The position numbers and the translations under genes were made by a program. This document shows positions 2,170-58,950 of a stretch of 59,652 nt of DNA, piece after piece; position 1 is the first letter of the stretch; every line of letters starts with the position of its first letter. The stretch comes from Candidatus Zambryskiibacteriota bacterium (GTDB taxonomy: Bacteria; Patescibacteriota; Minisyncoccia; Phycocordibacterales; Zambryskibacteraceae): the NCBI GenBank assembly GCA_016177225.1, contig JACOVQ010000002.1:1-59652 (forward strand). Reading direction: 5' to 3'. The notes below the pieces were generated by a model. The model searched no databases and was not told the DNA's origin. It saw nothing but the letters and a program-made list of their open reading frames with translations.

Positions 2170-3342
2170 GTGTCCGAGGCGCGCATCATTGGTCATCAGG
2201 GTTCAATTCAAAATACATTCGAACTTCGTTCAATACACACCGCCAAAATTTTATCAATAGAAACTTCGTGTGATGAAACTGCGGTAGCTGTTTTGGATAT
2301 AAACGGCGAATTGGAGAAACCGGATATAAAAATTTTGGGTAATACGCTTTTGTCTCAAATGCATTTGCATGAGAAGTATGGCGGTGTTTATCCAAACTTG
2401 GCAAAGAGAGAGCATGAGAAAAATTTACCAATACTTCTAGAAAAAACTTTGGAGCAAGCGGGCTTTCCTTCCCCTGCTAAGGGGAAGGTGCCAAAGGCGG
2501 AAGGGGTCGATTTAATCGCAGTTACAAGCGGGCCCGGACTCGAGCCGGCGCTTTGGGTTGGCATAACATTTGCAGAAAAATTGGGCAAAAAATGGAATAA
2601 ACCAATCATTCCAGTTAATCACATGACAGGTCATATTTGGTCGGTATTATTTGAAGGTAAGAAAATGGAACTGCCGGCTATAGCCTTGCTCGTATCGGGC
2701 GGGCACACGGAACTGGTTTATATAAAAGATTTTGAAGAGTACAAAATTATGGGACGCACCAGAGACGATGCCGTCGGCGAAGCATTTGATAAAGTAGCCA
2801 GAATGCTTGGACTTCCCTATCCTGGAGGACCGCAAATTTCGAAATTGGCGGAAAAGAACAGGAGTATGAACCACGAATCACGAATCATGTTCCCGAGACC
2901 GATGATTAATTCCGGCGATTTGGATTTCTCTTATTCTGGATTGAAGACTGCCGTTTTATATAAACTCAGAGACCTCTCCCAACCCTCTCCTAGGCTAGGA
3001 GAGGGCGGGCTTAGCCCGGGTGAGGTCGAAGAAATGGCTCGAGCATTCGAAGACGCGGCGGTGGAAGTATTGATAAAGAAAACACGCAAAGCTATTTTAG
3101 AGAAAGGCGATATAAAAACTCTCATTGTCGGCGGCGGCGTCTCGGCTAATCATTATTTGCGCCAAGAGATTAAAAAAATGGCTCAAAATATAAACTTAGA
3201 GATTCAACTTCCAAGTGTAGAGATGACTGGAGACAACGCGTTAATGATAGGTCTTGCGGCATATGTAAAGGTCAAAAAAGACCCGGGAATCCTTAAAAAT
3301 CATGCTCCCATAATAGCTCGAGGTAATGCTACACTAGGGTAA
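2170..3342 (+). CDS. tsaD: tRNA N6-adenosine threonylcarbamoyltransferase TsaD (start uncertain)
   Basis: KILSIETSCDETAVAV, VTSGPGLEPALWVG and VNHMTGH motifs. The tracked start at 2020 reads through the IR. GTG 2170 is the only canonical start between the IR and the conserved core, which begins at about 2245. Confidence 0.85.
   Translation: MSEARIIGHQGSIQNTFELRSIHTAKILSIETSCDETAVAVLDINGELEKPDIKILGNTLLSQMHLHEKYGGVYPNLAKREHEKNLPILLEKTLEQAGFPSPAKGKVPKAEGVDLIAVTSGPGLEPALWVGITFAEKLGKKWNKPIIPVNHMTGHIWSVLFEGKKMELPAIALLVSGGHTELVYIKDFEEYKIMGRTRDDAVGEAFDKVARMLGLPYPGGPQISKLAEKNRSMNHESRIMFPRPMINSGDLDFSYSGLKTAVLYKLRDLSQPSPRLGEGGLSPGEVEEMARAFEDAAVEVLIKKTRKAILEKGDIKTLIVGGGVSANHYLRQEIKKMAQNINLEIQLPSVEMTGDNALMIGLAAYVKVKKDPGILKNHAPIIARGNATLG
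2467..2488 (+). repeat. In-frame palindrome CCTTCCCC-TGCTAA-GGGGAAGG inside tsaD
   Basis: Perfect 8-bp arms. It encodes part of the extra segment FPSPAKGKVPKAEG, located between LEQAG and VDLIAVTSGPG. Confidence 0.6.
2972..3026 (+). repeat. Family-A imperfect palindrome (~55 nt) in frame in tsaD
   Basis: ACCTCTCCC-AA-CCCTCTCC-TAGGCTA-GGAGAGGG-CGGGCTTAGCCC-GGGTGAGGT. Translated as LSQPSPRLGEGGLSPGEV. Related to the copies in secA and gatB. Confidence 0.8.
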
Positions 3343-14172: not shown

Positions 14173-14230
14173 AAGTGTTACGAATTAATAATTGAATATG
14201 GCTTTATTTTAGCATAAATAATTATCCCCA

Positions 14231-14306
14231 GCATTGTAATTTGACGAGGCAAGGCCTCGACCAAGCACAGCATTGTAACTTGACGAGGCAAGGCCTCGAC
14301 CAAGCA
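14231..14306 (+). repeat. Two tandem 37-nt REP units upstream of the RAYT gene
   Basis: GCATTGTAAyTTGACGAGGCAAGGCCTCGACCAAGCA occurs twice (14231..14267 and 14270..14306). Hairpin CGAGGC-AAG-GCCTCG. Confidence 0.85.
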
Positions 14307-14312
14307 ATTATA

Positions 14313-14321
14313 TGGTATAAT
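14313..14321 (+). promoter_or_regulatory. Extended -10 TGGTATAAT, 6 nt upstream of the RAYT ATG
   Basis: TATGGTATAATTTTTATATG. The identical TGGTATAAT precedes rnpB. Confidence 0.5.
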
Positions 14322-14327
14322 TTTTAT

Positions 14328-14972
14328 ATGAGTTTGCGTAAAATCCCATTTGTGCCAGATGAGTACTACCATATATACAGTCGCGGTAGTGATAAGCGCA
14401 AAATATTCCACGACAACTCAGATTACAATCGCTTCTTAAATATTCTTTACCTATCAAATTCCGACATTAATTTTAGATTCGATAGAATCGAAGATGTCTA
14501 CTCTACCGAACGTGGCCAAAGACTTGTTTCAATAGGAGCTTATTGTCTTATGCCAAATCACGTGCATATTCTCATAAAGCAAGTTGCGGAAAACGGTATA
14601 AGCAGATTTATGCATAAACTCTTAACCGCTTATTCCATGTATTACAATACCAAATATGAACGCACGGGAGGATTACTTGAAGGTAAGTTCAAAGCAGAAC
14701 TTCTTGATTCAGACAACTATCTTAAATATCTATTTTCTTATATACATTTAAACCCTGTGAAATTGATTGAGCCGAAGTGGAAAGAAAGTGGAATTAGAAA
14801 CAGAAATAAAGCTATAGATTTTCTTAATAAATACCGTTATTCAAGCTACCAAGATTTTATGAGAATAGACCGAAAGGAAAAAGCAATTCTAAATTTGGAA
14901 GATTTCCCGGAGTATTTCCCGACTAAGGAAAAATTCCAAGAAGAAATTTTCGACTGGATTGATTACAAATAA
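14328..14972 (+). CDS. REP-associated tyrosine transposase (RAYT, IS200/Y1 HUH family)
   Basis: YHIYSRG, LMPNHVHILI (HUH) and YIHLNPVK (catalytic Tyr region). Flanked by REP hairpins. Start taken at MSLRKIPF rather than the tracked TTG at 14241, which reads through the REPs. Confidence 0.85.
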   Translation: MSLRKIPFVPDEYYHIYSRGSDKRKIFHDNSDYNRFLNILYLSNSDINFRFDRIEDVYSTERGQRLVSIGAYCLMPNHVHILIKQVAENGISRFMHKLLTAYSMYYNTKYERTGGLLEGKFKAELLDSDNYLKYLFSYIHLNPVKLIEPKWKESGIRNRNKAIDFLNKYRYSSYQDFMRIDRKEKAILNLEDFPEYFPTKEKFQEEIFDWIDYK

Positions 14973-14982
14973 GTTGAAAAAC

Positions 14983-15037
14983 TGACGAGGCAAGGCCTCG
15001 ACCAAGAAGAACTTGTGGTGTAATTTAAAACCACTTT
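14983..15037 (+). repeat. 55-bp REP-plus-hairpin unit, left direct repeat
   Basis: TGACGAGGCAAGGCCTCGACCAAGAAGAACTTGTGGTGTAATTTAAAACCACTTT. Repeated at 18106..18160 with one mismatch. Confidence 0.9.
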
Positions 15038-15513: not shown

Positions 15514-16548
15514 ATGAAAAAAACGGCGCAACCTTTTTTTCCAAGATTGCTTGTTTGTGGAATGATAGTCCTGTCCGGGAGCTTACTATCGCACAACATC
15601 GCTGGCGAGTTCAATCGGGACGAGAACGATTTGTGGCTCGTAAAAAATCTGGCGGAAAATTATTACAAACTCTCCGGCTTCCCGAGCTTCGCAAGCGTTA
15701 GCGACGAAAAGACGACATTCGACACATCAATTGGCCAGCAAGTAAACAGCGTGCCGAGCGAGCTGTACGAATTTCGCCTGATACGGGACCGACGTCTGCT
15801 TCTTTTGAGAACATATGGCAGAACGGGACAGACGGCAAATCCAGTTGTGGTTGACGTCGCCTCGGTTGAAAAAGCGGCGGCATACGGGGAGATAAAAATT
15901 CCCCGTATGCTCATCAGCGTAAATCAGCAAGTAGAATTTCCACTGACTAACCTCAGTGAGAAGTCTATGGCTGAGTTGAGAAAATTTTATTCCGATTTCA
16001 CTCGACCCTTGCAGGTTCGACCGGACGACTTTAATCCGGAAAATGAAATCGGAAAACTGAAGAGCCACGCTTTCTGGCGGTCTATTGGCATATCTTTGTC
16101 TGTCGTTTCGACTGGCGGAATATGGCTTGGGGCAGTAAGTTCTGTACTAGGTTTCGCCGGACTTATCCTAAGCGGGTTGGCCTGGCATTCTCGCCAAAAC
16201 AAAAAAAGGGTTCTAGCGGCAGGTTATATCGGACAACAAAAGCAGGCGCGAGTAGAATACCAAGAAAAAGTCTTTATCAGACAGCCAGCGCCAGGACCGA
16301 AAAGATTTGCCGCGGCCAGAACTCCGGCAATGGAACGACAGCGATTGGTAGATTCTGTCTTGAGATTGACCAGCGGCACAGTGCCGTTATCGCCAAAAGT
16401 CCAAGAGTTGTTGGAAGAAGTGGAAAAAATACCACTGTCAGATTACCAAGAAACAGTGGGCAAAATTCGGCTAGCGAGAAATTTGCAGTGGAGAGCCTTC
16501 AGAAACGGAGGCGGTCCAAAGCAAATGGAACGTCTCCACACACATTAA
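15514..16548 (+). CDS. Hypothetical membrane protein (signal/anchor plus central TM pair)
   Basis: N-terminal LLVCGMIVLSGSLL and a central hydrophobic stretch ISLSVVSTGGIWLGAVSSVLGFAGLILSGLAW. GGAGG lies 6 nt upstream of the ATG. Visibly G+C-richer than its neighbours. Confidence 0.6.
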   Translation: MKKTAQPFFPRLLVCGMIVLSGSLLSHNIAGEFNRDENDLWLVKNLAENYYKLSGFPSFASVSDEKTTFDTSIGQQVNSVPSELYEFRLIRDRRLLLLRTYGRTGQTANPVVVDVASVEKAAAYGEIKIPRMLISVNQQVEFPLTNLSEKSMAELRKFYSDFTRPLQVRPDDFNPENEIGKLKSHAFWRSIGISLSVVSTGGIWLGAVSSVLGFAGLILSGLAWHSRQNKKRVLAAGYIGQQKQARVEYQEKVFIRQPAPGPKRFAAARTPAMERQRLVDSVLRLTSGTVPLSPKVQELLEEVEKIPLSDYQETVGKIRLARNLQWRAFRNGGGPKQMERLHTH

Positions 16549-16571
16549 AATCGTCCTTATTTGGGCAACTA

Positions 16572-16602
16572 GGCTACCTATTCTATAGGTAGCCGTTCTT
16601 TT
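16572..16602 (+). terminator. Rho-independent terminator
   Basis: GGCTACCTAT-TCT-ATAGGTAGCC followed by GTTCTTTT. Confidence 0.6.
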
Positions 16603-16604
16603 AC

Positions 16605-16633
16605 TTGACAAAATAATAAGTACCATATATAAT
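16605..16633 (+). promoter_or_regulatory. Consensus sigma70-type promoter TTGACA-17 nt-TATAAT
   Basis: TTGACA at 16605..16610, a 17-nt spacer, then TATAAT at 16628..16633. AGGAGG at 16653..16658 lies 5 nt upstream of ATG 16664. Confidence 0.65.
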
Positions 16634-16663
16634 ATAGATAGACAAATTCAATAGGAGGTTCCT

Positions 16664-18022
16664 ATGCGGAAAGTATTTGGGGTAATTTTTATCACATTCG
16701 TGGTCACAAATTTCCCTCTGGCACTTGCTCAACAACAAGACTGGTTGGCGCGATGCTGGACTATCAACGTCCAGCGAGTAAGTGGGGACATGATTTTCAT
16801 CTACCCCAACAGCGACAGCAGAGTCACTTCCAGCCTCATCGGCGGCAACTCGTTTGATGAGCAGGAAATGACTCGTTGTGTGTATAGTCGGCTGTACGGC
16901 AAAGGCAAGCCGGAAGAAGAGAACGACTTCGTTGCCTATGCGCAGACTATTCCAGACAACAATTCGTATCCAGCCTACTTCCTGCGGGCGATGAACGCCT
17001 CACCGGGACTCGGTCTGGGAAGGTACGACCGCTCGTTCATGTTCGGCAGCAAGGGACGATTGCTTGGTGTCATCAACACCGGATTCAGCATCGTCAACCT
17101 AAACGCCGAACTGCAAAACATTCACTTCGATGAGTTGAATCACGAAATAAGCCACACGAAATGTTGTTACGCGGGCCATCAGCATTACGAGTACATAAAT
17201 GCGTTCGGAGATGGTTTCGGACATTGGTCCCGCTATCTCGGACGCAACGCTCGCGGCGAAGACGGTCCGGACAATTGCTCTGTGATGAGAGCCTCTCCAT
17301 ATGTCGAGCTCGGCAACGGGGACGCGCAAACACGGAACTGCCATTACCAAAGCCGACCAACAATAAACTCGTTAGAGATGTATCTGTGGGGATTCAAAAA
17401 CGCAGATGCATCAAAAGGTAAACAATTCCCATCGGTATCGTCAAAAGGAACAAGCATTTCCCATGACATTTACCGGGCTCCGATTGAAAAGTGGCTGACC
17501 ATTGACGACCTCATTGCGAAGATGGACGGGGAGGTGGTTTGGCCATCGGCGGAAATTTCGCCGAAGCACTTGCGGGTTCTATTCGCTCTGGTTATCATGC
17601 CGGGAACGGACAACAGGCAACTGCAGGCAATGCAGAATCGCTGGCAAGAATTCGCGCGGTTGGCGAGAGGCACATGGAATGAAGCGACAGGTGGAGTGTC
17701 CACGCTGAATAATCCATCCAAACCAAATCCGACCATGTTGGTCAGCAAGGACTACTTGGGAAAGTGGGACTTCTCGTACCACCCGGGTGAGTGGCTGGTG
17801 TTAAACATCACTGGCGCCGTACCGAACCAGTGGGGTATTCTCGTCGGATTTGATGGAAAAAATCAGTATTCCATTTCCATCAAATCCGACGAGACAGGCA
17901 AGGCGGCGTTCTCCGCCTTACTGCTCAAGGACCATATCGGAACGTGGTCCGCAGTTGTGCACTTCGGGGATGGCGTGACCTCAAACGTGATCACGTTTGA
18001 GGTCACGCCTCCCGGTCAATAA
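16664..18022 (+). CDS. Secreted protein with an HExxH motif (putative zinc metallopeptidase)
   Basis: Signal peptide MRKVFGVIFITFVVTNFPLALAQ. LNHEISHTK is the only HExxH motif. Several Cys residues. No family recognised with confidence. Confidence 0.45.
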   Translation: MRKVFGVIFITFVVTNFPLALAQQQDWLARCWTINVQRVSGDMIFIYPNSDSRVTSSLIGGNSFDEQEMTRCVYSRLYGKGKPEEENDFVAYAQTIPDNNSYPAYFLRAMNASPGLGLGRYDRSFMFGSKGRLLGVINTGFSIVNLNAELQNIHFDELNHEISHTKCCYAGHQHYEYINAFGDGFGHWSRYLGRNARGEDGPDNCSVMRASPYVELGNGDAQTRNCHYQSRPTINSLEMYLWGFKNADASKGKQFPSVSSKGTSISHDIYRAPIEKWLTIDDLIAKMDGEVVWPSAEISPKHLRVLFALVIMPGTDNRQLQAMQNRWQEFARLARGTWNEATGGVSTLNNPSKPNPTMLVSKDYLGKWDFSYHPGEWLVLNITGAVPNQWGILVGFDGKNQYSISIKSDETGKAAFSALLLKDHIGTWSAVVHFGDGVTSNVITFEVTPPGQ

Positions 18023-18105: not shown

Positions 18106-18160
18106 TGACAAGGCAAGGCCTCGACCAAGAAGAACTTGTGGTGTAATTTAAAACCACTTT
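18106..18160 (+). repeat. 55-bp REP-plus-hairpin unit, right direct repeat
   Basis: Identical to 14983..15037 except G to A at the fifth base. Confidence 0.9.
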
Positions 18161-18168
18161 TCAACCTA

Positions 18169-21100
18169 TCACTCTGCCGGTGGTTCTGGTGCAGGTTCTG
18201 CTTCGTCCGCCGTAGGTTCATCCGAAGACTGGGGAGTTACTTCAGGCGTAGGCGTAGGCTCAGGCTCAGGCTCAGATTCCGGAGTCGGTTCAGGTGTTGA
18301 AGTAACCTCTGATGTAGGTTCTGACACAGGTTCGACAGTTGGTGCGGGTTCCGATGTCGATATAGATTCCGGAATCACTTCTGGGCTTGCCTCTGGAGTT
18401 GCTTCCACGACAGGTGTTGATTCAGAATTTATTGATGGCTCTGAAGTCATCGCGCTTACGGTAACACCGATGCCATTCTTCTCGAGCAAAGTTTTGAACT
18501 GCTCTTTGTTTATGCAAATATCGTCGATGCAAAGCTCTTTGGTATAAACAATTTCCGAACTGATAGTCTTTACAAAGATACGTTCGATGCCGTTAGAGAC
18601 ATCAGCAAGCCAAGTGGTAATACGGGCGAAAAGATTTGAGAGAAACTTAGACGCGAGAGAGTCGGGGGCTGGTTCTTGACTCAACTTCTCTGTCAAATCG
18701 GTTAGGGAAAGCCCGGAGAGATTACTGTGTGTGACAAATAGTTGGATAGTACTTGCTGACGAGGTCTCCGTGTAATCTTCAAGAGCATACCCTATTGACT
18801 GTTCCCCGTCCCCTGCCTTCTTTGCTACACCTGGGATTGAGGAAAGTGACAAGTAATCACCGATGAGAATAGGCCCACCTTCAAGCGATACTTTAACAGG
18901 CACACGACCTGCAAGTGCGACTGGCTTCGAGTTCGTGAGTTCCTTGCCAAGTAAGACTCCGGGAGCAGTTGAGATAACACCCGCGAGTCTGTCCCCCGCT
19001 ATTGCCCTCTTTACCATTACCGCACCAGTAGTGTCGAACGCCACAACTTCTCCAGCAGAGAGTGTTGTATCTCTCGTGGAGTAATTTTCTGCCAAGTCGA
19101 TGTCGGTAATGGCCGCCGTGGTGGCGTATATCGTACCAGCTGTTGTACCACACGAGCCAGTGTCTCGAACGCACAAAGAACCTTGTATCGACAATGTAGA
19201 AACGGGCGTCGTCGTTCCTATCCCGACTTTGCCGTTGGCAATTACTAAATGACTGCAGGAAGTCGGGGAAACCCCGAATTCACTGTGGCAAAGCTCAAGT
19301 AAATTGTCGGTAGCATCATAACTAATACCTGCTTTTTCACTACCGTTTGAAATTATCCTGAAAAAGAAATCATTATCCCCTCCAACCTGCCATCGCGTAT
19401 CCAAATACGTGGCAGAAGATCGTATATCTAATTTTCCAGCTGGCCCCGTCGTCCCTATCCCGACGTTGCCTTGAATTATTAATCCCCCAGTTGGAGCCGC
19501 AGTTCCTGCGTAACCAATACCAACGCTAGCACCGCCTGCGAACGCACTTTCACCTAACACTGACAATTTTGAGACAGGACTCGTCGTCCCGATGCCGACG
19601 TTGCCGCTTCCGGTGTTTCTCATCGCTTCAGCCGCGGTCGTATTGTTTGCGGTGTAAAAACGCAAACCACCGGTGCCTGTTCCGCTCGCGTCTGCGTCCT
19701 TGAAACCGGCGACAATGCCGTATGTCGCTTGTGTAGCATCATTGTTGTTAAGCGGCCCTCCGAACACCAACGCGCTTCCACGGTCCACTCCTTGTCCTCC
19801 CGCTCCCGCTCCCAGGCGCAGTACTATTTCGTTTAATGTCGGTTCATTTGCAAATGTGGCTACTCCCACGCCGTTGATAATGGCGGCACCTGCCACATCC
19901 AATAGATACTGTGGGGTTGTCGTCCCGATGCCGACGTTGCCGCCGAATGGATTTAGTAACAACGGATAAGCGAAAGCCCCGCCCGTCTGTGTAGCTTGTA
20001 TGCCTTGTGCGTCGTTTGCCGTGTTCGCGTATCCCATGAAGATACCGTATTCGTTCGCGTGGCTTGAACCAAAAAATCTAAAGGATGCATCCGTGGCGGC
20101 GTCCGCCAGACTTGTCCATGTATTCACCGCTTGGCCAGTATCCTTGACGACGAGTCTTCCTTGCGGCCCCGTCGTCCCAATCCCCACATTCCCGCTGTTT
20201 TGCTGAACCACGAACTGCGAAGTGCCGACTGTAAGACCTCCGGTAGAGAAAGTGGAAGTGGCTGTAATGCCGGTAACGGTAATCTGATTCAGCCCGGTAA
20301 TGTTCTGTGAGTTGCCTGTGACCGCTCCTCCGAGGGTAAAGGTGTTGGCGCCGTTTGAATACAAAAGTTCGGAAGCGCCGTAAGTATCGGCTAAAGTGGC
20401 GGTACTGGCGATATAGTTGGTGCCGTTGCCCCGCAGGATTTTGCCTGCAGCGGCGGCATTACCGATTTTAAAGCCGGTGGCCACATTGAGCGTGCCGGTA
20501 AAGTCTGCGGCAGAGCTTATGGTCTGGCTGTTGATTAAGCCGGAAGTGATGGCTCCCAGTGTAGAGTTGCCGGTGGTGAGAGAAGTGGAAAACAGATTGG
20601 TCGATGAGGCGGTGGTGGAGAAGAAATTGGTGGTGGTAGCTGAAGTGCCGGTGGCGGTGGTGAAGGTAAAGTTTTGGAAAGTTGAGGAAGCATTAGCGAG
20701 AATATTAGCGAAAGTTCCTAAACCAGTGGAAGTAATGTTCCCGCCATTGCCCGTGGTAAAGAAAAGGTTAGTGCTTGATGCAGTGGTGCTAAAAAAACTA
20801 GTCGAAGTGGCGCTAGTAGAGGTGGATGTAGTAAAGATAGCGTTAGTGGCGGTGAGCCTAGAGAGCGTATTGTCCCAGAGGAGAGCGGAGGTGTCGGCCA
20901 GAAGCCCTGCGGTGGAAATGTACGGAATTCTACCGGAAGTAAGATTCGAGATGGTGGTTTGCCCGGAAGTGAGGGTGCCGATGGTGGCAGTATTAGTCCT
21001 GAAATCAGTAGTGGAAGCATTGGTAGTAAAGAAATTCGTCGTCGTAGCAGACGTTCCAGTGGCGTTCACGAAAGTGAAGTTCTGGAGGGTGGTGGAACCA

Positions 21101-22737
21101 ACTACCAAAAGGTCTCCCGAAGAATTAATGGTGGAGGTGGCTGAACCGCCGATGTTCAAGGTTCTGGCAAAGAGAGTACCGGCAAAGAAATCGGTGGAAG
21201 TAGCTGAAGTGGTGGTGGAGTTAGTGGCTGTTAAAGCGCCTGTAGTGATATCGTCAGCGACAATACTGGTAATGGTGGCAAGGAGAGAACGAATCTTGTC
21301 TGCATAGAAATTTGTAGTAGTAGCCGAAGTGCCTGTAGCATTTACAAAAGTAAAATTCTGCAGGGAAGTTGATGCGGATAGAACAAGATTGCCTAGAGTA
21401 GCGTTAGTAGCAAATAGATTCGTAGAGGTGGCATTCGTCGATGTAGCATCGACGATAGTAAGAGAAGAGCCATTGAAGCTTAAAGCGCTGACGTTGCCAT
21501 CAAAGACCGCATTGCCGTTTTTATCCAGAGTAATATTTGTCGCGTCGATAGTGACAGCATTACTCCCACCATTTAAAGCGATTTTGCCGCTGGCCGAGAA
21601 GTTGCCGGTGCCAAGACTGCCAAACGAGCCGCTTTTGCCAATCACGGAGCTTAACGATTCAAGGCCTCCTCTGACAGAAATATTTTTGCTGACGCTTAAA
21701 TTGCCGCTGATTTTGGCATCATTAGCTAGGGTAACCAAAGATTCAAAATACGCAGGGCCTAAGACATCCAGAGCTTGCCTGAATTCCGCATTACCAAACA
21801 CTTTGAGCTTTCCGCCAACATCAAGATTGGAAAGTAGTTTGGTAGCACCACGAATTAATAGTGTTTGTCCTATTTCCACCTTACCTTGCAACTCCACATT
21901 CTCTGCGGTTATATTGCCGTTGGCTGTCACAAACGCTAGAGTAAAATCGGTTGAACTTGCGCCTCCTAAAAATTCGGCATTTAAATTTTTGACTAAGGTT
22001 TTTGAGTCAACAACAATAGGCGCCATACCTTGAGCCACAAAAGATTTAAACTGACCTTTTGTCTCAATATGACCCATAATGGAAATGTTGCCTTCTTTAT
22101 CGAGAAGCAGAAGTTCGTTGGCGTGAGTTCCTGGACGGAAGCCCATCACAGTGTTGGCATCATTCAGAACTTCCTTAACATAATTCAGAGATTTATCAAA
22201 AAAACTGAATACTATCGGTATTGGCATTACAGAGAGAAGTATAAATAACGCAACAGTTGAACCGACTAACATTTTTGAAGAGAGAACCGTTTTGAAATGT
22301 GATTTATTTTCAGGTTCTATAAATTTAGATTCTCTGATTTTTACTCTCTCGGCTTCTAATCTATTTTTCGCTTCTTGTTCGGTAATTTTTTTTTCAAGAA
22401 CTTTTTCCAGTGCCTTCTCGATATGTTCTGTTTTCTCCGTAGGTAACGGAGTGTCGTCTTGAGGAAAATATTTATTGATGTCTCCGTAATAAGAGCGAAT
22501 GGGTTCCAACTCTATTTGAGCCTTGAACATCTGTCTCTGCATATAAGCATCCAAAGCATTCTTCGTTGTATACCATGTATTCTTAATTTTCTTAGAAGGA
22601 AGCTTCCCTTTACGAGCGAGTAAACTTAAGTACTCCGCGCTATATGGAGTAAACGGAGCCGCTTCCGACATTGAGAGCCATTTCTCGGTGCCGATATTAT
22701 GTATCGGTTCTTCTTTCACGTTGCATTTATTATACAT
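18169..22737 (-). CDS. Giant (1522 aa) protein: N-terminal HTH, one TM helix, beta-helix/fibre-like repeats, Pro/Glu/Thr-rich tail
   Basis: N-terminus WLSMSEAAPFTPYSAEYLSLLARKGKLPSKKIKNTWYTTKNALDAYM (excisionase/MerR-like HTH). TM helix at about aa 160-185. Three LQNFTFVNATGTSATTTNF repeats. Five GNVGIGTTxPxxxL motifs. C-terminal EPxP tract. Confidence 0.8.
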   Translation of the reverse strand: MYNKCNVKEEPIHNIGTEKWLSMSEAAPFTPYSAEYLSLLARKGKLPSKKIKNTWYTTKNALDAYMQRQMFKAQIELEPIRSYYGDINKYFPQDDTPLPTEKTEHIEKALEKVLEKKITEQEAKNRLEAERVKIRESKFIEPENKSHFKTVLSSKMLVGSTVALFILLSVMPIPIVFSFFDKSLNYVKEVLNDANTVMGFRPGTHANELLLLDKEGNISIMGHIETKGQFKSFVAQGMAPIVVDSKTLVKNLNAEFLGGASSTDFTLAFVTANGNITAENVELQGKVEIGQTLLIRGATKLLSNLDVGGKLKVFGNAEFRQALDVLGPAYFESLVTLANDAKISGNLSVSKNISVRGGLESLSSVIGKSGSFGSLGTGNFSASGKIALNGGSNAVTIDATNITLDKNGNAVFDGNVSALSFNGSSLTIVDATSTNATSTNLFATNATLGNLVLSASTSLQNFTFVNATGTSATTTNFYADKIRSLLATITSIVADDITTGALTATNSTTTSATSTDFFAGTLFARTLNIGGSATSTINSSGDLLVVGSTTLQNFTFVNATGTSATTTNFFTTNASTTDFRTNTATIGTLTSGQTTISNLTSGRIPYISTAGLLADTSALLWDNTLSRLTATNAIFTTSTSTSATSTSFFSTTASSTNLFFTTGNGGNITSTGLGTFANILANASSTFQNFTFTTATGTSATTTNFFSTTASSTNLFSTSLTTGNSTLGAITSGLINSQTISSAADFTGTLNVATGFKIGNAAAAGKILRGNGTNYIASTATLADTYGASELLYSNGANTFTLGGAVTGNSQNITGLNQITVTGITATSTFSTGGLTVGTSQFVVQQNSGNVGIGTTGPQGRLVVKDTGQAVNTWTSLADAATDASFRFFGSSHANEYGIFMGYANTANDAQGIQATQTGGAFAYPLLLNPFGGNVGIGTTTPQYLLDVAGAAIINGVGVATFANEPTLNEIVLRLGAGAGGQGVDRGSALVFGGPLNNNDATQATYGIVAGFKDADASGTGTGGLRFYTANNTTAAEAMRNTGSGNVGIGTTSPVSKLSVLGESAFAGGASVGIGYAGTAAPTGGLIIQGNVGIGTTGPAGKLDIRSSATYLDTRWQVGGDNDFFFRIISNGSEKAGISYDATDNLLELCHSEFGVSPTSCSHLVIANGKVGIGTTTPVSTLSIQGSLCVRDTGSCGTTAGTIYATTAAITDIDLAENYSTRDTTLSAGEVVAFDTTGAVMVKRAIAGDRLAGVISTAPGVLLGKELTNSKPVALAGRVPVKVSLEGGPILIGDYLSLSSIPGVAKKAGDGEQSIGYALEDYTETSSASTIQLFVTHSNLSGLSLTDLTEKLSQEPAPDSLASKFLSNLFARITTWLADVSNGIERIFVKTISSEIVYTKELCIDDICINKEQFKTLLEKNGIGVTVSAMTSEPSINSESTPVVEATPEASPEVIPESISTSEPAPTVEPVSEPTSEVTSTPEPTPESEPEPEPTPTPEVTPQSSDEPTADEAEPAPEPPAE

Positions 22738-23420: not shown

Positions 23421-23660
23421 ATGAAGGAACTCTACTTCTCAATTAAAGAAGCGGCGCAGATTCTCGGGGTTTCTCCTCTTACTCTCCGCAACTGGGATAA
23501 ATCAGGCAAATTCCGCGCCTCTAGACATCCTATGAATAATTATCGTGTGTATAAATTGTCTGCCCTGGAGGACATTATCGCCGACATCGAAGGCGGCACC
23601 AACAAATCCAACGCAGAGAAGCAGATTAAGAAACTGATTATTAAACACGAAGAAGACTAG
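23421..23660 (+). CDS. MerR/excisionase-type HTH protein (79 aa)
   Basis: YFSIKEAAQILGVSPLTLRNWDKSGKF...YRVYKLSALEDI. Confidence 0.7.
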   Translation: MKELYFSIKEAAQILGVSPLTLRNWDKSGKFRASRHPMNNYRVYKLSALEDIIADIEGGTNKSNAEKQIKKLIIKHEED

Positions 23661-25072
23661 TTTTTAACCTGTTCGAAAAGTTCTGACAGAATTTTAGGAT
23701 TCGCTTTGTTCTCTGTTTTTTTCATGGCCTGACCAATCAAAAATTGAATAGATGCTTCCGGATTTTCATTTAATACTTCTTCAACAACTTTTTTCAAAAC
23801 TTCTTTGCTATTCTCCTGAATTAAATTTTTCTCTTTAGCAATTTGCCCCGGATCTCCACCTTTAATTTCAATAATTTTCAAAATATCTTTGGCGCCGCGG
23901 GAAGAGAGCTCTCCGCTATCTACCATCTTTATAACCTCGACCAAGGCTTCTGGCTCCACAGGTTTCTTCAAATCAGAGGTAATGTAATTCGAGGCTAGCG
24001 GTATTAGACGGATGTCTCCCAGACATTCGATTACTTCTTCGAAGTAATTCCCCCACTCCGGCTGGGTCACATAAATTTCAGCGTGTTCCGCGGTTATGCC
24101 AAGCTTTAATAACCTTTCTCGCTTCTGCCACGGCAGTTCCGGCAAGCTTTCAGCAAGGACAGTCCTTGTAAAATCGGGCACTTCATTTATGAAAAGCTTT
24201 GGCAAATCCGGCTCCGGGAAATAGCGGTAATCATGCGCCGATTCTTTCAGTCTTTGCGAAAACGTCGCCCCGACGTTTTCGTCCCACCCTCGCGTTTCTT
24301 GTATTACTTCGTTACCGTTTTCTAAGATTTCTATTTGTCTTTTATATTCAAATTCAACTGCCTTACCCACCGCCCTGAAAGAATTGATATTTTTTACTTC
24401 GACTTTTGTGCCCAAGGTCTGACCTTGGAAATCGGAATTCTTAAGGTCAGACCTTTGTACGGAAATATTTGCTTCCACCCGCATCTCGCCTTTCTCCATA
24501 TTTGCGTTGGAAATCCCAAGGTACTGTAGAAGCAATTGGAGCTCTTTGGCAAACTTTACAGCCTCTTCGCTTGTATGCATTACTGGCTCAGTCACTAATT
24601 CCATCAAGGGTACCCCCGCTCGATTGAAATCGATGAGACTTACCTCACCCCCTTTCCCCTCTCCTTGAGCAAGGAGAGGGGCTGGGGAGAGGTGGGTAGA
24701 TTTCGCTGTATCCTCCTCAAGGTGAATCCTTGTGATCTTTATACCATTTAGAGAACCGCCTTTCACCAACGGGTACTTGTATTGGCTGATTTGATAGCCT
24801 TTTGGAATATCGGGGTAAAAATAGTTTTTGCGGTCAAACTCGGTAAAGTCGGCCAGTTCTCCTCCCACAGCGACACCTAAGCGTAAAATACTTCTGACCG
24901 CTTCTTTATTAATAACAGGCAAAGTGCCCGGATAACCCATACACACTGGACAAATATTTACATTGGGACGCCTTTCATCCGGATGATTGGCGGAATTGCA
25001 AAACATTTTTGTTTTGGTGTTCAACTCGGCATGTATTTCGAGACCAATGGTTAATTTATAGTCTTTACCCAT
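23657..25072 (-). CDS. gatB: Asp/Glu-tRNA(Asn/Gln) amidotransferase subunit B
   Basis: YKLTIGLEIHAELNT, CPVCMGYPGTLPV, NRAGVPLMELVTEP and the C-terminal GatB_Yqey region. Start taken at MGKDYKL. Confidence 0.92.
   Translation of the reverse strand: MGKDYKLTIGLEIHAELNTKTKMFCNSANHPDERRPNVNICPVCMGYPGTLPVINKEAVRSILRLGVAVGGELADFTEFDRKNYFYPDIPKGYQISQYKYPLVKGGSLNGIKITRIHLEEDTAKSTHLSPAPLLAQGEGKGGEVSLIDFNRAGVPLMELVTEPVMHTSEEAVKFAKELQLLLQYLGISNANMEKGEMRVEANISVQRSDLKNSDFQGQTLGTKVEVKNINSFRAVGKAVEFEYKRQIEILENGNEVIQETRGWDENVGATFSQRLKESAHDYRYFPEPDLPKLFINEVPDFTRTVLAESLPELPWQKRERLLKLGITAEHAEIYVTQPEWGNYFEEVIECLGDIRLIPLASNYITSDLKKPVEPEALVEVIKMVDSGELSSRGAKDILKIIEIKGGDPGQIAKEKNLIQENSKEVLKKVVEEVLNENPEASIQFLIGQAMKKTENKANPKILSELFEQVKN
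24414..24455 (-). repeat. Family-B double hairpin element in frame in gatB
   Basis: AAGGTCTGACCTT-16 nt-AAGGTCAGACCTT, translated as RSDLKNSDFQGQTLG. Confidence 0.8.
24641..24698 (-). repeat. Family-A imperfect palindrome in frame in gatB (diverged copy)
   Basis: Core CCCCTCTCCTTGAGCAAGGAGAGGGG. Translated as HLSPAPLLAQGEGKGGEV. Confidence 0.75.
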
Positions 25073-25131: not shown

Positions 25132-25521
25132 TTATACATTAGATACAGGAATCTTATTGCTTGCCTTTCTTATAATAGCGGAAAATATTAAATGAAGTTC
25201 TTGAGCTTCCCTAAAAAGGACTTGCAGATCGACGGTGTGTTCTGGAGTGAATTCAGTCATCAATTTTAACCAGTACTTCGTTTCGTTAGCTTCTTTCTTG
25301 GAAATAGAGATTTTATTGATAAAATCTTTCTTAGAATTAGCTGAATCTGCTTCAGAATAATTGGCACCTATGCTCGTGCCCGATCTTATTAACTGGCTTA
25401 TCACGGGCTTAGTAATATGGTCTTGCCTAAGCTTACGACAGCACTTTAACAAATCCTGACTAAACTTAAAAGTTCTGTCTGCTAAATCGTAAGTCTTACT
25501 ATCTGTATTATCTTTAGTCAT
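25132..25521 (-). CDS. Four-helix-bundle protein (23S rRNA intervening-sequence protein family)
   Basis: SQLIRSGTSIGANYSEA, FINKISISKKEANETKYWLKL. Confidence 0.8.
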   Translation of the reverse strand: MTKDNTDSKTYDLADRTFKFSQDLLKCCRKLRQDHITKPVISQLIRSGTSIGANYSEADSANSKKDFINKISISKKEANETKYWLKLMTEFTPEHTVDLQVLFREAQELHLIFSAIIRKASNKIPVSNV

Positions 25522-26528: not shown

Positions 26529-27080
26529 TTAAAGATACGACAGTCCGTGAACGCTCATGCCGACAAGGACGAGCGTCAGCATCATTCTGACAATAGAGCC
26601 CGTTACCGTTAAGACGAAGAACGGCAAGAATCTCATGCGAAGAATGCCGGCGCCGATATCCATGGGAATAGACGGCAGGATGGGAGCCGAGCGGAGGATA
26701 AAGAAAATTATTTCGTCATACCATGTCCCGTGGAAATAGCGGTTAACCTTCTCGACATCCTGCCAAGAGAAGTGAAGGAAACGATGATACTTATTGATTA
26801 CCGGCTTGCCGCCAAAATAAGCCAAAGCGTATAAAGGTACCGACCCTAAGGCGCTCCCCACCCCCACTGGCACAGCTACAAAAACCAGGAGTTTAGCCGA
26901 CAGAGCAAGCGTAAATTGAGAATCCAGAAATAAAAGCTGTCCCGCGATAACGAGTGAGAATGGAAAGATGCCGACAAGGTCATTTAAAAATGAGGCTACA
27001 AAAAGCGGCAGCATATGCGCGGCGCTCGGGTCGGTAACAACAGTTTTTATCGCCTCGACAATTTGGCTCGCCTCTTGCAT
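26529..27080 (-). CDS. DedA/VTT-domain membrane protein
   Basis: Multi-TM protein with YFGGKPVINKYHRFLHFSWQDVEKVNRYFHGTWYDEIIFFILRSAPILP, typical of the SNARE-associated/DedA family. Confidence 0.55.
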   Translation of the reverse strand: MQEASQIVEAIKTVVTDPSAAHMLPLFVASFLNDLVGIFPFSLVIAGQLLFLDSQFTLALSAKLLVFVAVPVGVGSALGSVPLYALAYFGGKPVINKYHRFLHFSWQDVEKVNRYFHGTWYDEIIFFILRSAPILPSIPMDIGAGILRMRFLPFFVLTVTGSIVRMMLTLVLVGMSVHGLSYL

Positions 27081-29512
27081 TACTTTTTCTCCGCCGCGAG
27101 CTTCTGATGCTCCGGCGTATTAAGCATACCGCACTTCTTGTACTTCTTGCCCGACCCGCAGAAACACGGGTCATTGCGACCAAGATTCACCTCATCCGGA
27201 CTGCGTCCACCCTCTCCTTGAGCAAGGAGAGGGTTGGGTGAGGTCGAGGAATTTGCGAGAGGAAGTTCCGCCGGAAGCGCTGTTATTAACTCATTAACTT
27301 GTTTTGCAATCGACTCTTCCATGTTTCGGAAAAATCTTAATCCTTCCTTTTTGTATTCGACAAGAGGCTCGCGCTGTCCGTAAGCGCGCAGATTTACCGA
27401 TGAGCGCAAATAATCCATCATTTCCAGATGGTCCACCCAGAACAGGTCTATGGTTTGTAAATTTATCCGGCGAATTATTTCATTCTCTTCTTCCATAAGA
27501 ATCTTGCGGCGCCTTTCGTAAATAATCTTTCTCTGAAAGTTTAATACGTCATCAAATTCCAAAACATGTTTGCGGGCGTCGAAATTGAACCCTTCTATTT
27601 TCTCCTGCGCTTTCTCCAGGGCATTGGTGATGAGTTTGTTTTCGATGGGCTCATCTTCCGGAATGTTGAAGCGGCCCATCATGTTTTTAATGGCATCGAC
27701 CGCAAAAATTCTCATAAGCGAATCTTCAAGAGATACAAAAAATTGCGTCTCTCCCGGGTCGCCCTGTCTGCCGGAGCGACCGCGCAACTGATTATCAATG
27801 CGCCGCGCGTCATGCCGTTCCGTACCGAGGACAAAAAGACCGCCGAGAGATTTTACCTCCTCATACTCTTCCGGAACGGCCAGTTTGCCACCGAGTTTAA
27901 TGTCAACGCCACGACCGGCCATGTTGGTGGCAATGGTAACCGCACCCTTCTTGCCCCCGCCCGCGATGATTTCGCCTTCCCTTTCGTGATTTTTGGCATT
28001 TAACACTTCGTGCTTAATGCCTTCGTCTTTCAAATAATCGGAAAGCAGTTCGTTGTGCTCGATGGAAACCGTGCCGATGAGTACAGGCTGGCCTTTTTTG
28101 TTCAATTCTTTGACGCACTTGGCGACCGCCTTCATTTTGCCGGCATGAGTTTGAAAAATTAGGTCCTGGTGGTCTTTGCGGGCGACTGGCTGATGCGTGG
28201 GAATGATAAAAGTTTCTAATCCATAGACTTTATAAAATTCTTCTTTGGAAGTGGCGGCCGTACCGGTCATGCCCGAGAGTTTTTTATACATGCGGAAATA
28301 ATTCTGAAAGGTAATGGAAGCGTAAGTGCGGCTCTCTTCTTTAATCCTGACACCTTCCTTGGCTTCTATAGCTTGATGCAATCCTTCGGACCAGCGTCTG
28401 CCGGGCTGAAGTCTGCCGGTAAAAGCGTCGACAATCACCACTTCATTATCCTTCACTACATATTCTTTATCTTTCTGGTACAAAGCCTTGGCCTTCACGG
28501 CGGTTTCCAGATGATGCACATATTTCACGCCGCCTTCGGTGTAGATGTTTTCGATGTTTAAAAGTTTTTCGGCGTGATTGATGCCCTGGTCAGTCAGAGA
28601 AACGGCACGGAGTTTTTCATCGATGGTGTAATCTGATTCTAGCTTTAAAGCTTCGGCAATTTTAGCGAATTTCTGATACAAGTCGTCCGCGGCTCCAGTA
28701 TTGCCCGATATAATCAAAGGCGTGCGCGCTTCGTCGATCAGAATGGAATCGATTTCGTCAACGACGGCGTAATGATGCTCTCTCTGTGATAAAAGATTTT
28801 TGTCATACAGAAGATTGTCGCGCAGATAATCAAAGCCGAATTCGTTGTTGGTGCCGTAAGTAATATCGGCGCGGTAAGCTTCCTGTTTGGTGGCCGGCCT
28901 TAAAAATTCGTGCACAACGTGAAATGAACCTTTCTCGTCGCGAGTTTTATCCACCTCACCCGGGCTGCGCCCACCCTCTCCTTGAGCAAGGAGAGGGTTG
29001 GGTGAGGTTATATGCTTCTCATCGTATATGAAAGATTCCAAATGAGTCAGAACTCCGACAGACAAACCAAGATAGTCGTAAATTTGACCCATCCACACGG
29101 CGTCGCGGCGAGAGAGATAGTCGTTCACTGTTACAACATGCACTCCTTTGCCTTCGAGCGCGGCAAGATAAGCGGGCATTGTCGCCACCAGAGTTTTGCC
29201 CTCGCCGGTTTTCATCTCGGCGATGCCGCCTTTAAACATGGCAATGCCGCCCAGAAGCTGAACATCAAAGTGCCTTTGGCCCAAAGTGCGCTTAGCCGCT
29301 TCTCTCACGACGGCAAAAGCTTCCGGAAGCATTTCTTCCAATGTTTTGCCTTCCGACAAAAGTTTTTTAAATTGCGAGGTCTTGCCTAACAATTCTTCGG
29401 GCAAAAGTTTTTCAAGCGCCGGTTCATATGCATTAATCTTGTCGACCAGAGGCCGCCATGATTTCAATAACTTTTCTTCCGGAGAACCGAAAAGGGCTTT
29501 AAATATGGCCAT
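27080..29512 (-). CDS. secA: Preprotein translocase ATPase SecA
   Basis: IAEMKTGEGKTLVATMPAYLAAL, DEIDSILIDEARTPLIISG, TNMAGRGVDIKLGG and the C-terminal zinc finger CFCGSGKKYKKCG. Confidence 0.95.
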   Translation of the reverse strand: MAIFKALFGSPEEKLLKSWRPLVDKINAYEPALEKLLPEELLGKTSQFKKLLSEGKTLEEMLPEAFAVVREAAKRTLGQRHFDVQLLGGIAMFKGGIAEMKTGEGKTLVATMPAYLAALEGKGVHVVTVNDYLSRRDAVWMGQIYDYLGLSVGVLTHLESFIYDEKHITSPNPLLAQGEGGRSPGEVDKTRDEKGSFHVVHEFLRPATKQEAYRADITYGTNNEFGFDYLRDNLLYDKNLLSQREHHYAVVDEIDSILIDEARTPLIISGNTGAADDLYQKFAKIAEALKLESDYTIDEKLRAVSLTDQGINHAEKLLNIENIYTEGGVKYVHHLETAVKAKALYQKDKEYVVKDNEVVIVDAFTGRLQPGRRWSEGLHQAIEAKEGVRIKEESRTYASITFQNYFRMYKKLSGMTGTAATSKEEFYKVYGLETFIIPTHQPVARKDHQDLIFQTHAGKMKAVAKCVKELNKKGQPVLIGTVSIEHNELLSDYLKDEGIKHEVLNAKNHEREGEIIAGGGKKGAVTIATNMAGRGVDIKLGGKLAVPEEYEEVKSLGGLFVLGTERHDARRIDNQLRGRSGRQGDPGETQFFVSLEDSLMRIFAVDAIKNMMGRFNIPEDEPIENKLITNALEKAQEKIEGFNFDARKHVLEFDDVLNFQRKIIYERRRKILMEEENEIIRRINLQTIDLFWVDHLEMMDYLRSSVNLRAYGQREPLVEYKKEGLRFFRNMEESIAKQVNELITALPAELPLANSSTSPNPLLAQGEGGRSPDEVNLGRNDPCFCGSGKKYKKCGMLNTPEHQKLAAEKK
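27189..27244 (-). repeat. Family-A imperfect palindrome (~56 nt) in frame in the secA C-terminal linker
   Basis: ACCTCATCC...CCCTCTCCTTGAGCAAGGAGAGGG...GGGTGAGGT. Translated as SPNPLLAQGEGGRSPDEV. Confidence 0.85.
28953..29008 (-). repeat. Family-A imperfect palindrome (~56 nt) in frame in mid secA
   Basis: ACCTCACCC...CCCTCTCCTTGAGCAAGGAGAGGG...GGGTGAGGT. Translated as SPNPLLAQGEGGRSPGEV. About 4 mismatches to 27189..27244. Confidence 0.85.
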
Positions 29513-58184: not shown

Positions 58185-58950
58185 CATGTTCTACCCTCAT
58201 GTCGCCATGAGGCACGGACTATATCATCACCCTTGTTTGAAGAATTTTCCCTTTGATAGGATGTGCTGATCCAATCTTTGAGGCAAAATTTTTATGAGAT
58301 TTTGCTCTTACATAGACTCTCCAGTAGTCCGGGTCAACACGTTCGCTAGGATTGTGTATTTTCCCTGTACTGATGTCTAACGTAGAGAGCATTCTCACAA
58401 GCTTCTCAATTTTAGTTCGATCTTTCTGAACTAGCTGAATATAGAATCCAGCTTTTACATTTCGAGGAACGCCTCCTTCGGCGTCAAAGAAACCTCTAAT
58501 ATATGCCGCTTTTTCTGCATTCGTAACCAGTGTTAGTGGATCGAATCGAAAATCAAGAAACTTCGCAAGTGTTTCCAATGTGTAGACTTCGCGATTTCTC
58601 TCTCTGTAGATCCAGGACTTATATCCAAGTTCCTGAAATAACTTTTGAAGAAACGTTAGCCATTCTGTACCCTTCTGGGTAAAACGGTATCGTTTCTTCT
58701 TATTGAGAGAGGCGTCGTGAAGCGCACCCAATAGATAAGCTTGTATTTCTTCACAAGGGGCTCGGCGTGTAGTCTCTGAGGGGTCAACAACGACTTCCCT
58801 GCTGATTCTCTGCACCTGTAACTTTGTTACAATTATGATACTTAATTATATCATAGCTGTAGTCCAGGATTCCCAGAATTTCCAGCATATAGCCAAGCTT
58901 ATTTTTCCAGAAATTACTTTCTGGCGTCGCAACGGACGCAGTTTGCGTCT
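58185..58950 (-). mobile_element. 766-nt intervening sequence in 16S at the AAGTCGT|AACAAGG site (E. coli ~1500)
   Basis: The exon junction reconstitutes the universal AAGTCGTAACAAGG. The 5' exon ends in U and the insert ends in G. It contains a LAGLIDADG ORF. Confidence 0.8.
58219..58815 (-). CDS. Double-motif LAGLIDADG homing endonuclease
   Basis: YLLGALHDAS and YIRGFFDAEGG motifs, about 90 aa apart. Confidence 0.85.
   Translation of the reverse strand: MQRISREVVVDPSETTRRAPCEEIQAYLLGALHDASLNKKKRYRFTQKGTEWLTFLQKLFQELGYKSWIYRERNREVYTLETLAKFLDFRFDPLTLVTNAEKAAYIRGFFDAEGGVPRNVKAGFYIQLVQKDRTKIEKLVRMLSTLDISTGKIHNPSERVDPDYWRVYVRAKSHKNFASKIGSAHPIKGKILQTRVMI

Follow-up and report, generated by a model that had tools for sequence, protein, structure and literature searches.

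What allows near-identical palindromes to sit in frame inside several essential genes of one bacterium, and are they maintained as peptide, as RNA or as DNA? This question is raised by a 59,652-nucleotide stretch (hereafter the window) of the Candidatus Zambryskiibacteriota bacterium assembly GCA_016177225.1, contig JACOVQ010000002.1. Four imperfect palindromes of 52-58 nt were found in its secA (two copies), tsaD and gatB genes, all of them in frame and in identical orientation relative to the host gene. With a probability of roughly 0.6, we interpret them as copies, inserted in frame, of a structured DNA repeat that multiplies by copy-and-paste and is of the kind known as BoxC, "potential intrastrand triplex" (PIT) or "triplex motif" (TM). 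Repeats of this kind are abundant across bacteria, and for three decades they have had neither a known function nor a known means of spread.

A preliminary description of this DNA had reported the in-frame copies and their shared orientation, and both are borne out by the sequence and the translations. The pattern CCCTCTCC-N4-12-GGAGAGGG has exactly four matches in the window and none in 100 dinucleotide-preserving shuffles. The elements contain about 65% G+C, compared with 43% for the window. The two secA copies, both translated as (I/S)TSPNPLLAQGEGGRSP(G/D)EV, are indeed near-identical, but differ at three of 56 positions rather than at about four. Two of these changes compensate each other within a small inner hairpin (GGGC/GCCC in one copy, GGAC/GTCC in the other), and the third is a G to A change in one outer arm. 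One secA copy lies in the C-terminal linker before the zinc finger, as described, whereas the other is located much further upstream than the mid-SecA position first given to it (Table 1). The translations of the tsaD and gatB copies are DLSQPSPRLGEGGLSPGEV and HLSPAPLLAQGEGKGGEV, respectively. It had been correctly noticed that the loop of the tsaD copy is 1 nt shorter (7 nt instead of 8), and because of this the left half is read in another frame. What had been called a 12-nt arm is really a 4-bp hairpin with a 3-nt loop, and the gatB copy does not have that hairpin. The scan for triplex geometry described below revealed a fifth, related element inside tsaD. All five window elements lie inside intact open reading frames (ORFs), each a conserved housekeeping gene.

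In the core of the element, the pyrimidine block CCCTCTCC is separated by a loop from its purine complement GGAGAGGG, and two nucleotides further on comes a G-rich block GGGTGAGG. The G-rich block mirrors the purine block, giving antiparallel G·G, A·A and T·A matches throughout. Such a mirror arrangement is the geometry of a potential purine-motif (class II) intrastrand triple helix. A single DNA strand would fold as a hairpin clasped by a third strand, through G·G:C, A·A:T and T·A:T triads. Scanning for a pyrimidine block of at least 8 nt, a first loop of 2-10 nt, the exact complement, a second loop of 1-16 nt and the mirror block, we found five loci with at least eight perfect triads in the window, versus none in 20 shuffles. 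For the tsaD, gatB and upstream secA copies (three of the four palindromes), both strands meet this geometry. The C-terminal secA copy has a perfect predicted triplex on the plus strand only, because one of its arms is mutated. The fifth element meets the geometry on the sense strand only, and its third block has no Watson-Crick partner; its blocks are of other sequence, yet it shares the architecture, down to a mini-hairpin in the second loop. Nearest-neighbour folding tools consider Watson-Crick pairs only, and with these the copies that have a mini-hairpin fold, as RNA or as DNA, into a three-way junction. Its parts are an outer stem (ACCTCACCC/GGGTGAGGT), a main hairpin (CCCTCTCCTTG-NN-CAAGGAGAGGG) and the mini-hairpin (GGGC-GCA-GCCC), and the DNA fold of the upstream secA copy reaches -24.2 kcal/mol (z -7.1). 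The gatB copy, without a mini-hairpin, gives two nested stems.

In three of the four copies, the sense-strand loop that connects the purine and third blocks is a C-GNA-G-type mini-hairpin, which further supports a DNA structure. With a script, 18 distinct two-armed elements, taken from the window and from related loci, were compared, as a MAFFT alignment (15 elements) mis-registered the length-variable hairpin. In 14 of the 18 elements the second loop contains a hairpin with a 3-nt loop and no fewer than 3 bp, whereas shuffles contained it in 1.6 on average and in six at most (2000 trials). All 14 mini-hairpins are closed by a C:G pair, and 12 of them have a GNA loop (GAA in eight, GCA in three, GTA in one). 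The next two stem pairs change on both sides, the one being A:T in nine and G:C in five cases, the other G:C in ten, C:G in three and A:T in one. Such d(GNA) loops closed by C:G are known as very stable DNA mini-hairpins, for example d(GCGAAGC) (PMC3201870, PMC13037366). The arms are similarly informative. Across the 18 elements, the variable position of the left arm is A in 13 and T in five, but never C or G, and the right arm always has T. The left-arm T breaks the outer Watson-Crick stem, yet stays allowed in the triplex. Where the fifth window element has T:A·A, its orthologous copies in the relatives L141-L143 have C:G·G, with the change made in all three blocks, and in the third block it is synonymous (GAA to GAG). 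As this co-variation represents one event, we regard it as supportive, not decisive. A correlation of G-run lengths between the purine and third blocks in a superfamily from viral contigs was ambiguous, the loop residues often being G, and was not used. Purine-motif triplexes do not form in RNA (PMC4666352, introduction).

Table 1. Elements, their host genes and the transposase gene of the window, with their positions
Feature	Position	Strand	Details
secA (host)	27080..29512	-	810 aa, intact; E = 7e-233 to solved SecA structures
Upstream secA copy	28953..29008	-	SecA residues 170-188, first nucleotide-binding domain; arms ACCTCACCC/GGGTGAGGT; main hairpin CCCTCTCCTTG-CT-CAAGGAGAGGG; mini-hairpin GGGC-GCA-GCCC
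C-terminal secA copy	27189..27244	-	C-terminal linker, directly before SEC-C zinc finger; mini-hairpin GGAC-GCA-GTCC; one arm mutated to GGATGAGG
tsaD (host)	2170..3342	+	390 aa as called in the collection (P0121); conserved core from ~2245; E = 9e-73 to solved TsaD structures
tsaD copy	2971..3027	+	loop 7 nt (TAGGCTA); left arm CCTCTCCC; mini-hairpin GGGC-TTA-GCCC
tsaD element of the second family (fifth element)	2467..2507	+	CCTTCCCCT-GCTA-AGGGGAAGG-(TGCCAAAGGC mini-hairpin)-GGAAGGGGT; peptide FPSPAKGKVPKAEGV
gatB (host)	23657..25072	-	471 aa; E = 2e-100 to solved GatB structures
gatB copy	24641..24698	-	element proper 24642-24693; four blocks each one C/G longer; 6-nt spacer GAAAGG instead of mini-hairpin
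Y1 transposase gene, like the repetitive extragenic palindrome (REP)-associated tyrosine transposases (RAYT)	14328-14972		PF01797, E = 9e-9

By its sequence, the core of the element is the published BoxC / PIT / TM repeat, a G/C-rich intrastrand-triplex repeat. The link came via a full-text literature search with the three octamers, which led to PMC4666352. The preliminary description had been aware of no description for this kind of genome; the core was already published from more than 260 genomes (PMC4666352). It is the BoxC repeat known from Escherichia coli since the 1990s, which was rediscovered as the PIT by Hoyne and Maher in 2000 and later became TM/TMECO (PMC4666352). Holder et al. 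(2015) counted 3,610 copies across 262 genomes of proteobacteria, besides many in cyanobacteria (PMC4666352). Isolated single-stranded TM DNA forms a stable triplex in vitro, and the repeats have neither promoter nor terminator activity; they are associated with local genome variability, not with transposons, and the E. coli K-12 copies are "always located intergenically" (PMC4666352).

The likeness extends to the layout. In E. coli K-12 (164480-164700), between hrpB and mrcB and downstream of hrpB, BoxC reads ACCCTCACCC-TAA-CCCTCTCCC-TCAA-GGGAGAGGG, and its counterpart in the window is ACCTCACCC-AA-CCCTCTCC-TTGCTCAA-GGAGAGGG. The left half of the window element and the arm-spacer-hairpin arrangement of E. 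coli are nearly superimposable, and the family block sequences CCCTCNCC / GGNGAGGG of E. coli are matched by the window blocks (Table 1 in PMC4666352; K-12 locus). Both have the blocks CCCTCTCC / GGAGAGGG / GGGTGAGG, class II geometry and a mirror-repeat third strand, and both are multi-copy, with strongly conserved stems and variable loops. A transposase is known for neither, and both are tied to local rearrangement. The window elements differ, however, in having blocks of 8 nt instead of 9 nt and a second loop of 2 nt or 6-14 nt (mostly the mini-hairpin) instead of 3 nt. Furthermore, their hairpin is flanked by two third-strand arms, making both strands competent, whereas E. coli has pairs of separate motifs. 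The window copies lie within the ORFs of essential genes and those of E. coli between genes, and the host is a Parcubacteria-type member of the candidate phyla radiation (CPR), not a proteobacterium or cyanobacterium.

The motif superfamily is very large: a loose-pattern scan of viral-labelled contigs (IMG/VR) gave more than 120 loci as a lower bound. Among the loci listed, about one third are deep inside long ORFs, although most of these contigs are GC-rich, where spurious ORFs abound. One viral-labelled sequence, IMGVR_UViG_3300020057_000061 (L060/L010/L014), carries 11 copies of one variant of the triplex motif, some of them in a regular array with a 72-nt period. No Rfam family covers the elements, and BLAST of the 56-mer against E. 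coli genomes and phage records had no match, probably due to the short, low-complexity query. The motif itself is already known, as are protein-coding palindromes as a phenomenon (Rickettsia; PMC10969869). In the literature that could be searched, we found no description of triplex-motif repeats inside genes, or of such elements in CPR. The two-armed, both-strand-competent form with a DNA mini-hairpin, the systematic occupation of loops in essential proteins, and the conservation well above that of the host genes were not found described either.

The elements were also compared with those of relatives. The nearest SecA and TsaD homologues come from Candidatus Zambryskibacteria and other Parcubacteria assemblies, with at most 81% identity. 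Among 27 orthologues, only the window has the element at the upstream secA site; it is absent from all 26 close relatives, which have a gap of 9-17 residues opposite the window TSPNPLLAQGEGGRSPGEV. The C-terminal linker of SecA is hypervariable among relatives. At this site, the same element is found in the same place in P0008 (L139), a variant with the tsaD-type frame in P0007, and other GC palindromes in P0002. The tsaD site is filled in two of the 27 orthologues, P0122 (L130) being the only relative to share the element, and the remaining TsaD proteins have short loops or unrelated inserts there. Its second-family site has orthologous copies in L141-L143 and is empty in L130. The gatB insert corresponds to a 13-residue gap in solved GatB structures, and the relative L139 carries a different insert in this loop. 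A site in LepA is filled in L124 and empty in the window. Neither the upstream secA site nor the LepA site, compared filled with empty, shows a visible target duplication, the compared species being diverged. At the level of sequence comparison, presence and absence among close orthologues shows that the elements are insertions. The extra peptide, proposed earlier to be inserted rather than ancestral, is mostly missing from close relatives, but is present at the same position in TsaD of P0122/L130 and in SecA of P0008; the insertions were therefore inherited within a sub-lineage.

The elements are not restricted to these three genes. In genome and metagenome collections the two-armed pattern occurs at 17 loci, nearly all from CPR and both coding and intergenic. 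In CPR relatives, in-frame hosts are DnaG (three related contigs and a more distant one), LepA, the ribonucleotide reductase large subunit, ATP synthase beta (AtpD) and a beta-CASP metallo-beta-lactamase (L121), the latter with two copies in reverse orientation. Together with the window, eight host protein families are known. Intergenic copies in the relatives occupy tiny gaps at the 3' ends of genes. Other GC-rich, palindrome-like inserts are found in these same loops in relatives, for example in GatB FTPTNLPLIKGEVPEAEGVGDE, the SecA linker SPLAGGEITPPLPRGRLGGV and DnaG INNPPAPSKSAQAPEGGAEEW (L139 14736-16121; L138 3740-3820; L135/L136), and several element families therefore share the permissive sites.

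The DnaG orthologues of L127 (2635-2810) and L134 (3009-3340) have the element at the same site and different C-termini after it. In L127 it is followed by a SEC-C zinc tail, which is 70% identical in nucleotides to the window secA tail, and in L134-L136 by a coiled-coil. The element thus lies precisely at a domain-swap junction, and this hints at recombination between copies.

At orthologous sites, conservation of the elements far exceeds that of the surrounding genes. Between the window and L130, the tsaD element is identical at 55 of 57 nt versus 75% in the rest of the gene (third codon positions, 18/19 versus 53%). For the C-terminal secA site, the window and L139 share 53 of 57 nt, versus 72% in the rest (16/19 versus 45%). 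The dnaG elements of L134 and L136 are identical at 56 of 57 nt, with 84% outside (18/19 versus 66%), and those of L134 and L127 at 52 of 57 nt, with 64% outside (17/19 versus 38%). Overall, element identity ranges from 89 to 98% and host gene identity from 63 to 84%, with third positions at 84-95% versus 38-66% (Fisher p over all positions, 6e-4 to 4e-6). Where the two species share the amino acid, they also share the codon in 15-18 of 16-19 cases within the element and in 43-67% outside (p, 4e-5 to 6e-3 in the four pairs). The second family shows the same trend (7/9 versus 38%, p = 0.02). Because synonymous codons are kept in elements so much more conserved than their hosts, the target of constraint or homogenisation is the nucleic acid and not the peptide. 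A unit at the nucleic-acid level, as the preliminary description had proposed, is also supported by the use of other frames (tsaD; LepA in L124), by the reverse copies in L121 and by gain and loss at the sites. Its view of the elements as tolerated in protein loops is supported for the loops of TsaD, but mere tolerance is too weak a term, because the orthologous copies are far more conserved than the host genes. The two orthologous tsaD copies have three rare features in common, namely the TTA loop, the 7-nt main loop and the left-arm T, which favours vertical inheritance of one insertion over homogenisation within the genome.

Structural comparisons indicate where in the host proteins the inserts lie. 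In the AlphaFold model of TsaD (mean pLDDT, the predicted local distance difference test score, 84.6) the 2971-3027 insert is coil with a pLDDT of 57, between helices 256-270 and 283-312. The 2467-2507 insert is likewise coil (pLDDT 59), between confident helices and strands. Both GatB and TsaD have the inserts at gaps relative to solved structures. For SecA, the mean pLDDT of 47.9 is too low for mapping the two sites. The extra residues had earlier been placed in protein loops, and the TsaD model agrees, as do the gaps against solved structures: the inserts occupy variable loops and linkers. In all five window inserts, and in all ORF copies of the relatives, the ORF remains open across the element, in frame and without stops. 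Two of the three sense frames of the element are open, and one of the three antisense frames. The inserts would be transcribed and translated as Pro/Gly/Glu-rich loops of about 17-19 residues.

The favoured reading, a mobile triplex-motif repeat, would account for the location of the copies as follows. Because about 88% of the genome is coding, the copies that persist would be only those that keep the frame, avoid stops and land in permissive loops. Their sequence would be held constant by the DNA structure, or by a protein reading that structure, and not by the peptide. Spread was probably through single-stranded DNA, and would use a single-stranded intermediate or template switching that leaves no target duplication. 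Several points weigh against this reading. The triplex was not detected by in vivo footprinting in E. coli (PMC4666352), and the strict TMECO consensus, CCCTCNCCC-N3-6-GGGNGAGGG-N3-GGGNGAGGG, has no match in the window, where the blocks are 8 nt long and the second loop measures 2, 6 or 12 nt. Neither a transposase nor a target duplication or a clean empty site was found, the compared species being about 20% diverged. The high conservation could stem in part from recent independent insertion at preferred sites, or from gene conversion. Translation of the inserts is a conclusion drawn only from their intact frames. Moreover, the sense strand also folds well as RNA (-32 to -41 kcal/mol, z -4.5 to -5.9).

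The RNA fold raises the possibility that the selected structure resides in the mRNA, where a three-way junction would pause ribosomes between folding units or shield the transcript from RNases, the DNA triplex being incidental. It is in line with this that all ORF copies except those of L121 have the same orientation relative to the host, and that copies lie between structural units, such as before the SecA zinc finger, at the C-terminal junction of DnaG and in inter-helix loops of TsaD. The orientation bias, however, is not significant once stops are considered (8/9 versus an expected 2:1, p about 0.14), and L121 hosts two reverse copies. An RNA fold also has no need for outer blocks that mirror the inner purine block, nor for a third block that co-varies without a Watson-Crick partner, as in the second family (2467-2507). 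The left-arm T (CCTCTCCC), found in five of 18 elements, breaks the outer stem and is triplex-compatible, C or G occur in none of the 18, and 3-nt GNA loops closed by C:G are a stability motif specific to DNA. On balance, we consider selection on an mRNA structure unlikely. A very improbable option is that the peptide SPNPLLAQGEGGRSPGEV is itself a functional module (a flexible linker, for instance, or an epitope for binding), with the palindrome secondary. The right half does read G-E-V in every sense-oriented ORF copy, and the peptide is conserved at orthologous sites. Against this, the left half in tsaD and the middle in LepA (LLGKERVAKPGEV) are read in other frames, L121 reads the whole element in reverse (SPLASRDPLLDKERVGRG), synonymous sites are conserved beyond the amino-acid level, and identical DNA also occurs between genes. 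No family built on the peptide emerged from a profile-free search of 1.8 billion representative proteins, in which phmmer with a 30-aa window segment retrieved two unrelated repetitive proteins only. Likewise, a 55-aa concatenation of the three open frames had no candidate in an index of 5.8 billion proteins. GC-rich, strongly folding inserts of 50-60 nt in essential genes also bring to mind sequences absent from the mature protein, through RNA removal or ribosome skipping (T4 gene 60, yeast mitochondrial "byp"), or simply assembly artefacts. Known bypass elements are similar in size. Yet all inserts are in frame and free of stops, which excision or bypass would not require, and the frame break or take-off stop of programmed bypass is found in none of the copies, in the window or in relatives. 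Artefacts, an early concern, are ruled out because assemblies made independently (NCBI, ENA and JGI) show these inserts again at orthologous sites. We therefore give this explanation almost no weight.

A different alternative concerns the means of movement. An IS200-type HUH tyrosine transposase, such as the Y1 enzyme of the window, may move the elements in trans; they would then be hairpins of the REP kind, and a REP/RAYT system would have spread into coding regions. The best NCBIfam match of the Y1 gene is indeed a REP-associated tyrosine transposase, but with a score of 40, below the cut-off of 80. Y1 homologues lie no more than a few kb from element-bearing genes in L124 and L138, and the lack of target duplication fits insertion of single-stranded DNA by an HUH enzyme. 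REP/RAYT systems (REPINs) resemble the elements in their short GC-rich hairpin repeats, in a plausible single-stranded-DNA mechanism without target duplication, and in the presence of a RAYT-like gene. The window element, however, has no GTAG-type 5' motif and is found as intragenic singletons, not as inverted doublets. Above all, the Y1 gene is flanked by a different 23-nt hairpin repeat of its own, GACGAGGCAAGGCCTCGACCAAG, in four copies; the direct copies (14229-15010) lie twice upstream and once downstream of the gene, and the fourth, with one mismatch, at 18107-18129. In L124 and L138, each homologue has its own hairpins, different again, and none of the Y1-associated hairpins resembles the triplex element. 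Since the Y1 genes carry their own distinct hairpins, mobilisation of the triplex element by the Y1 enzyme is possible but unsupported, and we judge it quite unlikely. The BoxC of E. coli is not known to be the REP recognised by the RAYT of that species. Some of the Y1-associated hairpins in L124 and L138 are themselves in frame within ORFs, even within the transposase gene itself. MITEs, the miniature inverted-repeat transposable elements, were considered as well. The element ends in 9-bp terminal arms, and no parent insertion sequence with the same ends appeared in Pfam scans of 52 window ORFs, a set that includes every long non-overlapping ORF other than the three host genes. The enterobacterial MITEs ERIC and RU are likewise small repeats with terminal inverted repeats, occasionally in frame within ORFs (Delihas 2007, PMC2759123). 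They are, however, 100-170 bp long, derive from DDE-type elements, occur only sporadically in ORFs and have no triplex geometry (PMC2759123).

The closest analogy offered in the preliminary description was the Rickettsia palindromic elements (RPEs) of Ogata et al. 2000, 2002, summarised in PMC10969869. It is a fair one, as both are palindromes in frame in several unrelated genes and placed in loops. More specifically, RPEs too lie in housekeeping genes, in a bacterium with a small genome; their translation and fold compatibility are likewise predicted, and no transposase is known for them. The window elements are nevertheless outside the RPE family, their host belonging to CPR/Parcubacteria, not to Rickettsia. 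RPEs are about 100-150 bp long compared with 52-58 nt, AT-richer, unrelated in sequence and not triplex motifs. Copies of RPEs diverge along with their hosts, whereas orthologous copies of the window type stay 89-98% identical while the host genes fall to 63-84%.

Should the elements be triplex-motif repeats, a further step can be tentatively proposed, namely that they are not passive passengers but cis-acting DNA signals under purifying selection in essential genes of CPR. We regard this as possible, though doubtful. If true, they could act as pause sites for replication or transcription, or as sites for a structure-reading protein. They could also be recombination joints that shuffle protein ends, for example in the DnaG with a SecA-type SEC-C zinc tail after the element. 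Such a role would be the first functional lead in the BoxC/PIT puzzle, now 30 years old, and from a lineage that does not let the element hide between genes. Being within essential genes, each copy is exposed to selection on protein, mRNA and DNA at once. Comparison of an element with the surrounding synonymous sites makes constraint on the nucleic acid measurable, which is much harder in intergenic regions that have no aligned synonymous sites. The protein-coding palindromes of the Rickettsia style are hereby extended to the candidate phyla radiation, and may explain part of the lineage-specific loop insertions in CPR core proteins. Such inserts inflate apparent protein divergence and could confuse marker-gene alignment and phylogeny (SecA, DnaG, LepA, AtpD, GatB, TsaD).

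Several other features of the window deserve mention. The SecA protein, at about residues 675-685, does not have a segment of ~20-50 residues (varying with the relative, mostly about 40) that is present in all 26 close relatives, between ...RRRKIL and ...RRxILQTIDLFW. Two G-rich segments of 50 nt (39-88 and 2080-2129), exact reverse complements of each other, bracket the ORF 428-1792, the second being just upstream of tsaD. Within them are a mini-hairpin of the GCGAAGC type and a tract of G-runs (GGAGGGGTGGGGGGAGGAGG). A group I intron (Rfam RF00028) at 58195-58945 lies inside the 16S rRNA gene and carries an ORF for a LAGLIDADG homing endonuclease (58219-58815). Group I introns in 16S genes are common in CPR. 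Between gatB and obg, a four-helix-bundle protein of the "23S rRNA intervening sequence" type is encoded at 25132-25521. A 1522-aa ORF and ORFs of 344 and 452 aa (18169-22737, 15514-18022) match no Pfam or NCBIfam family. Finally, a 24-kb cluster of glycosyltransferase, sugar-nucleotide and O-antigen-ligase genes (29820-53953) is free of triplex-motif elements.

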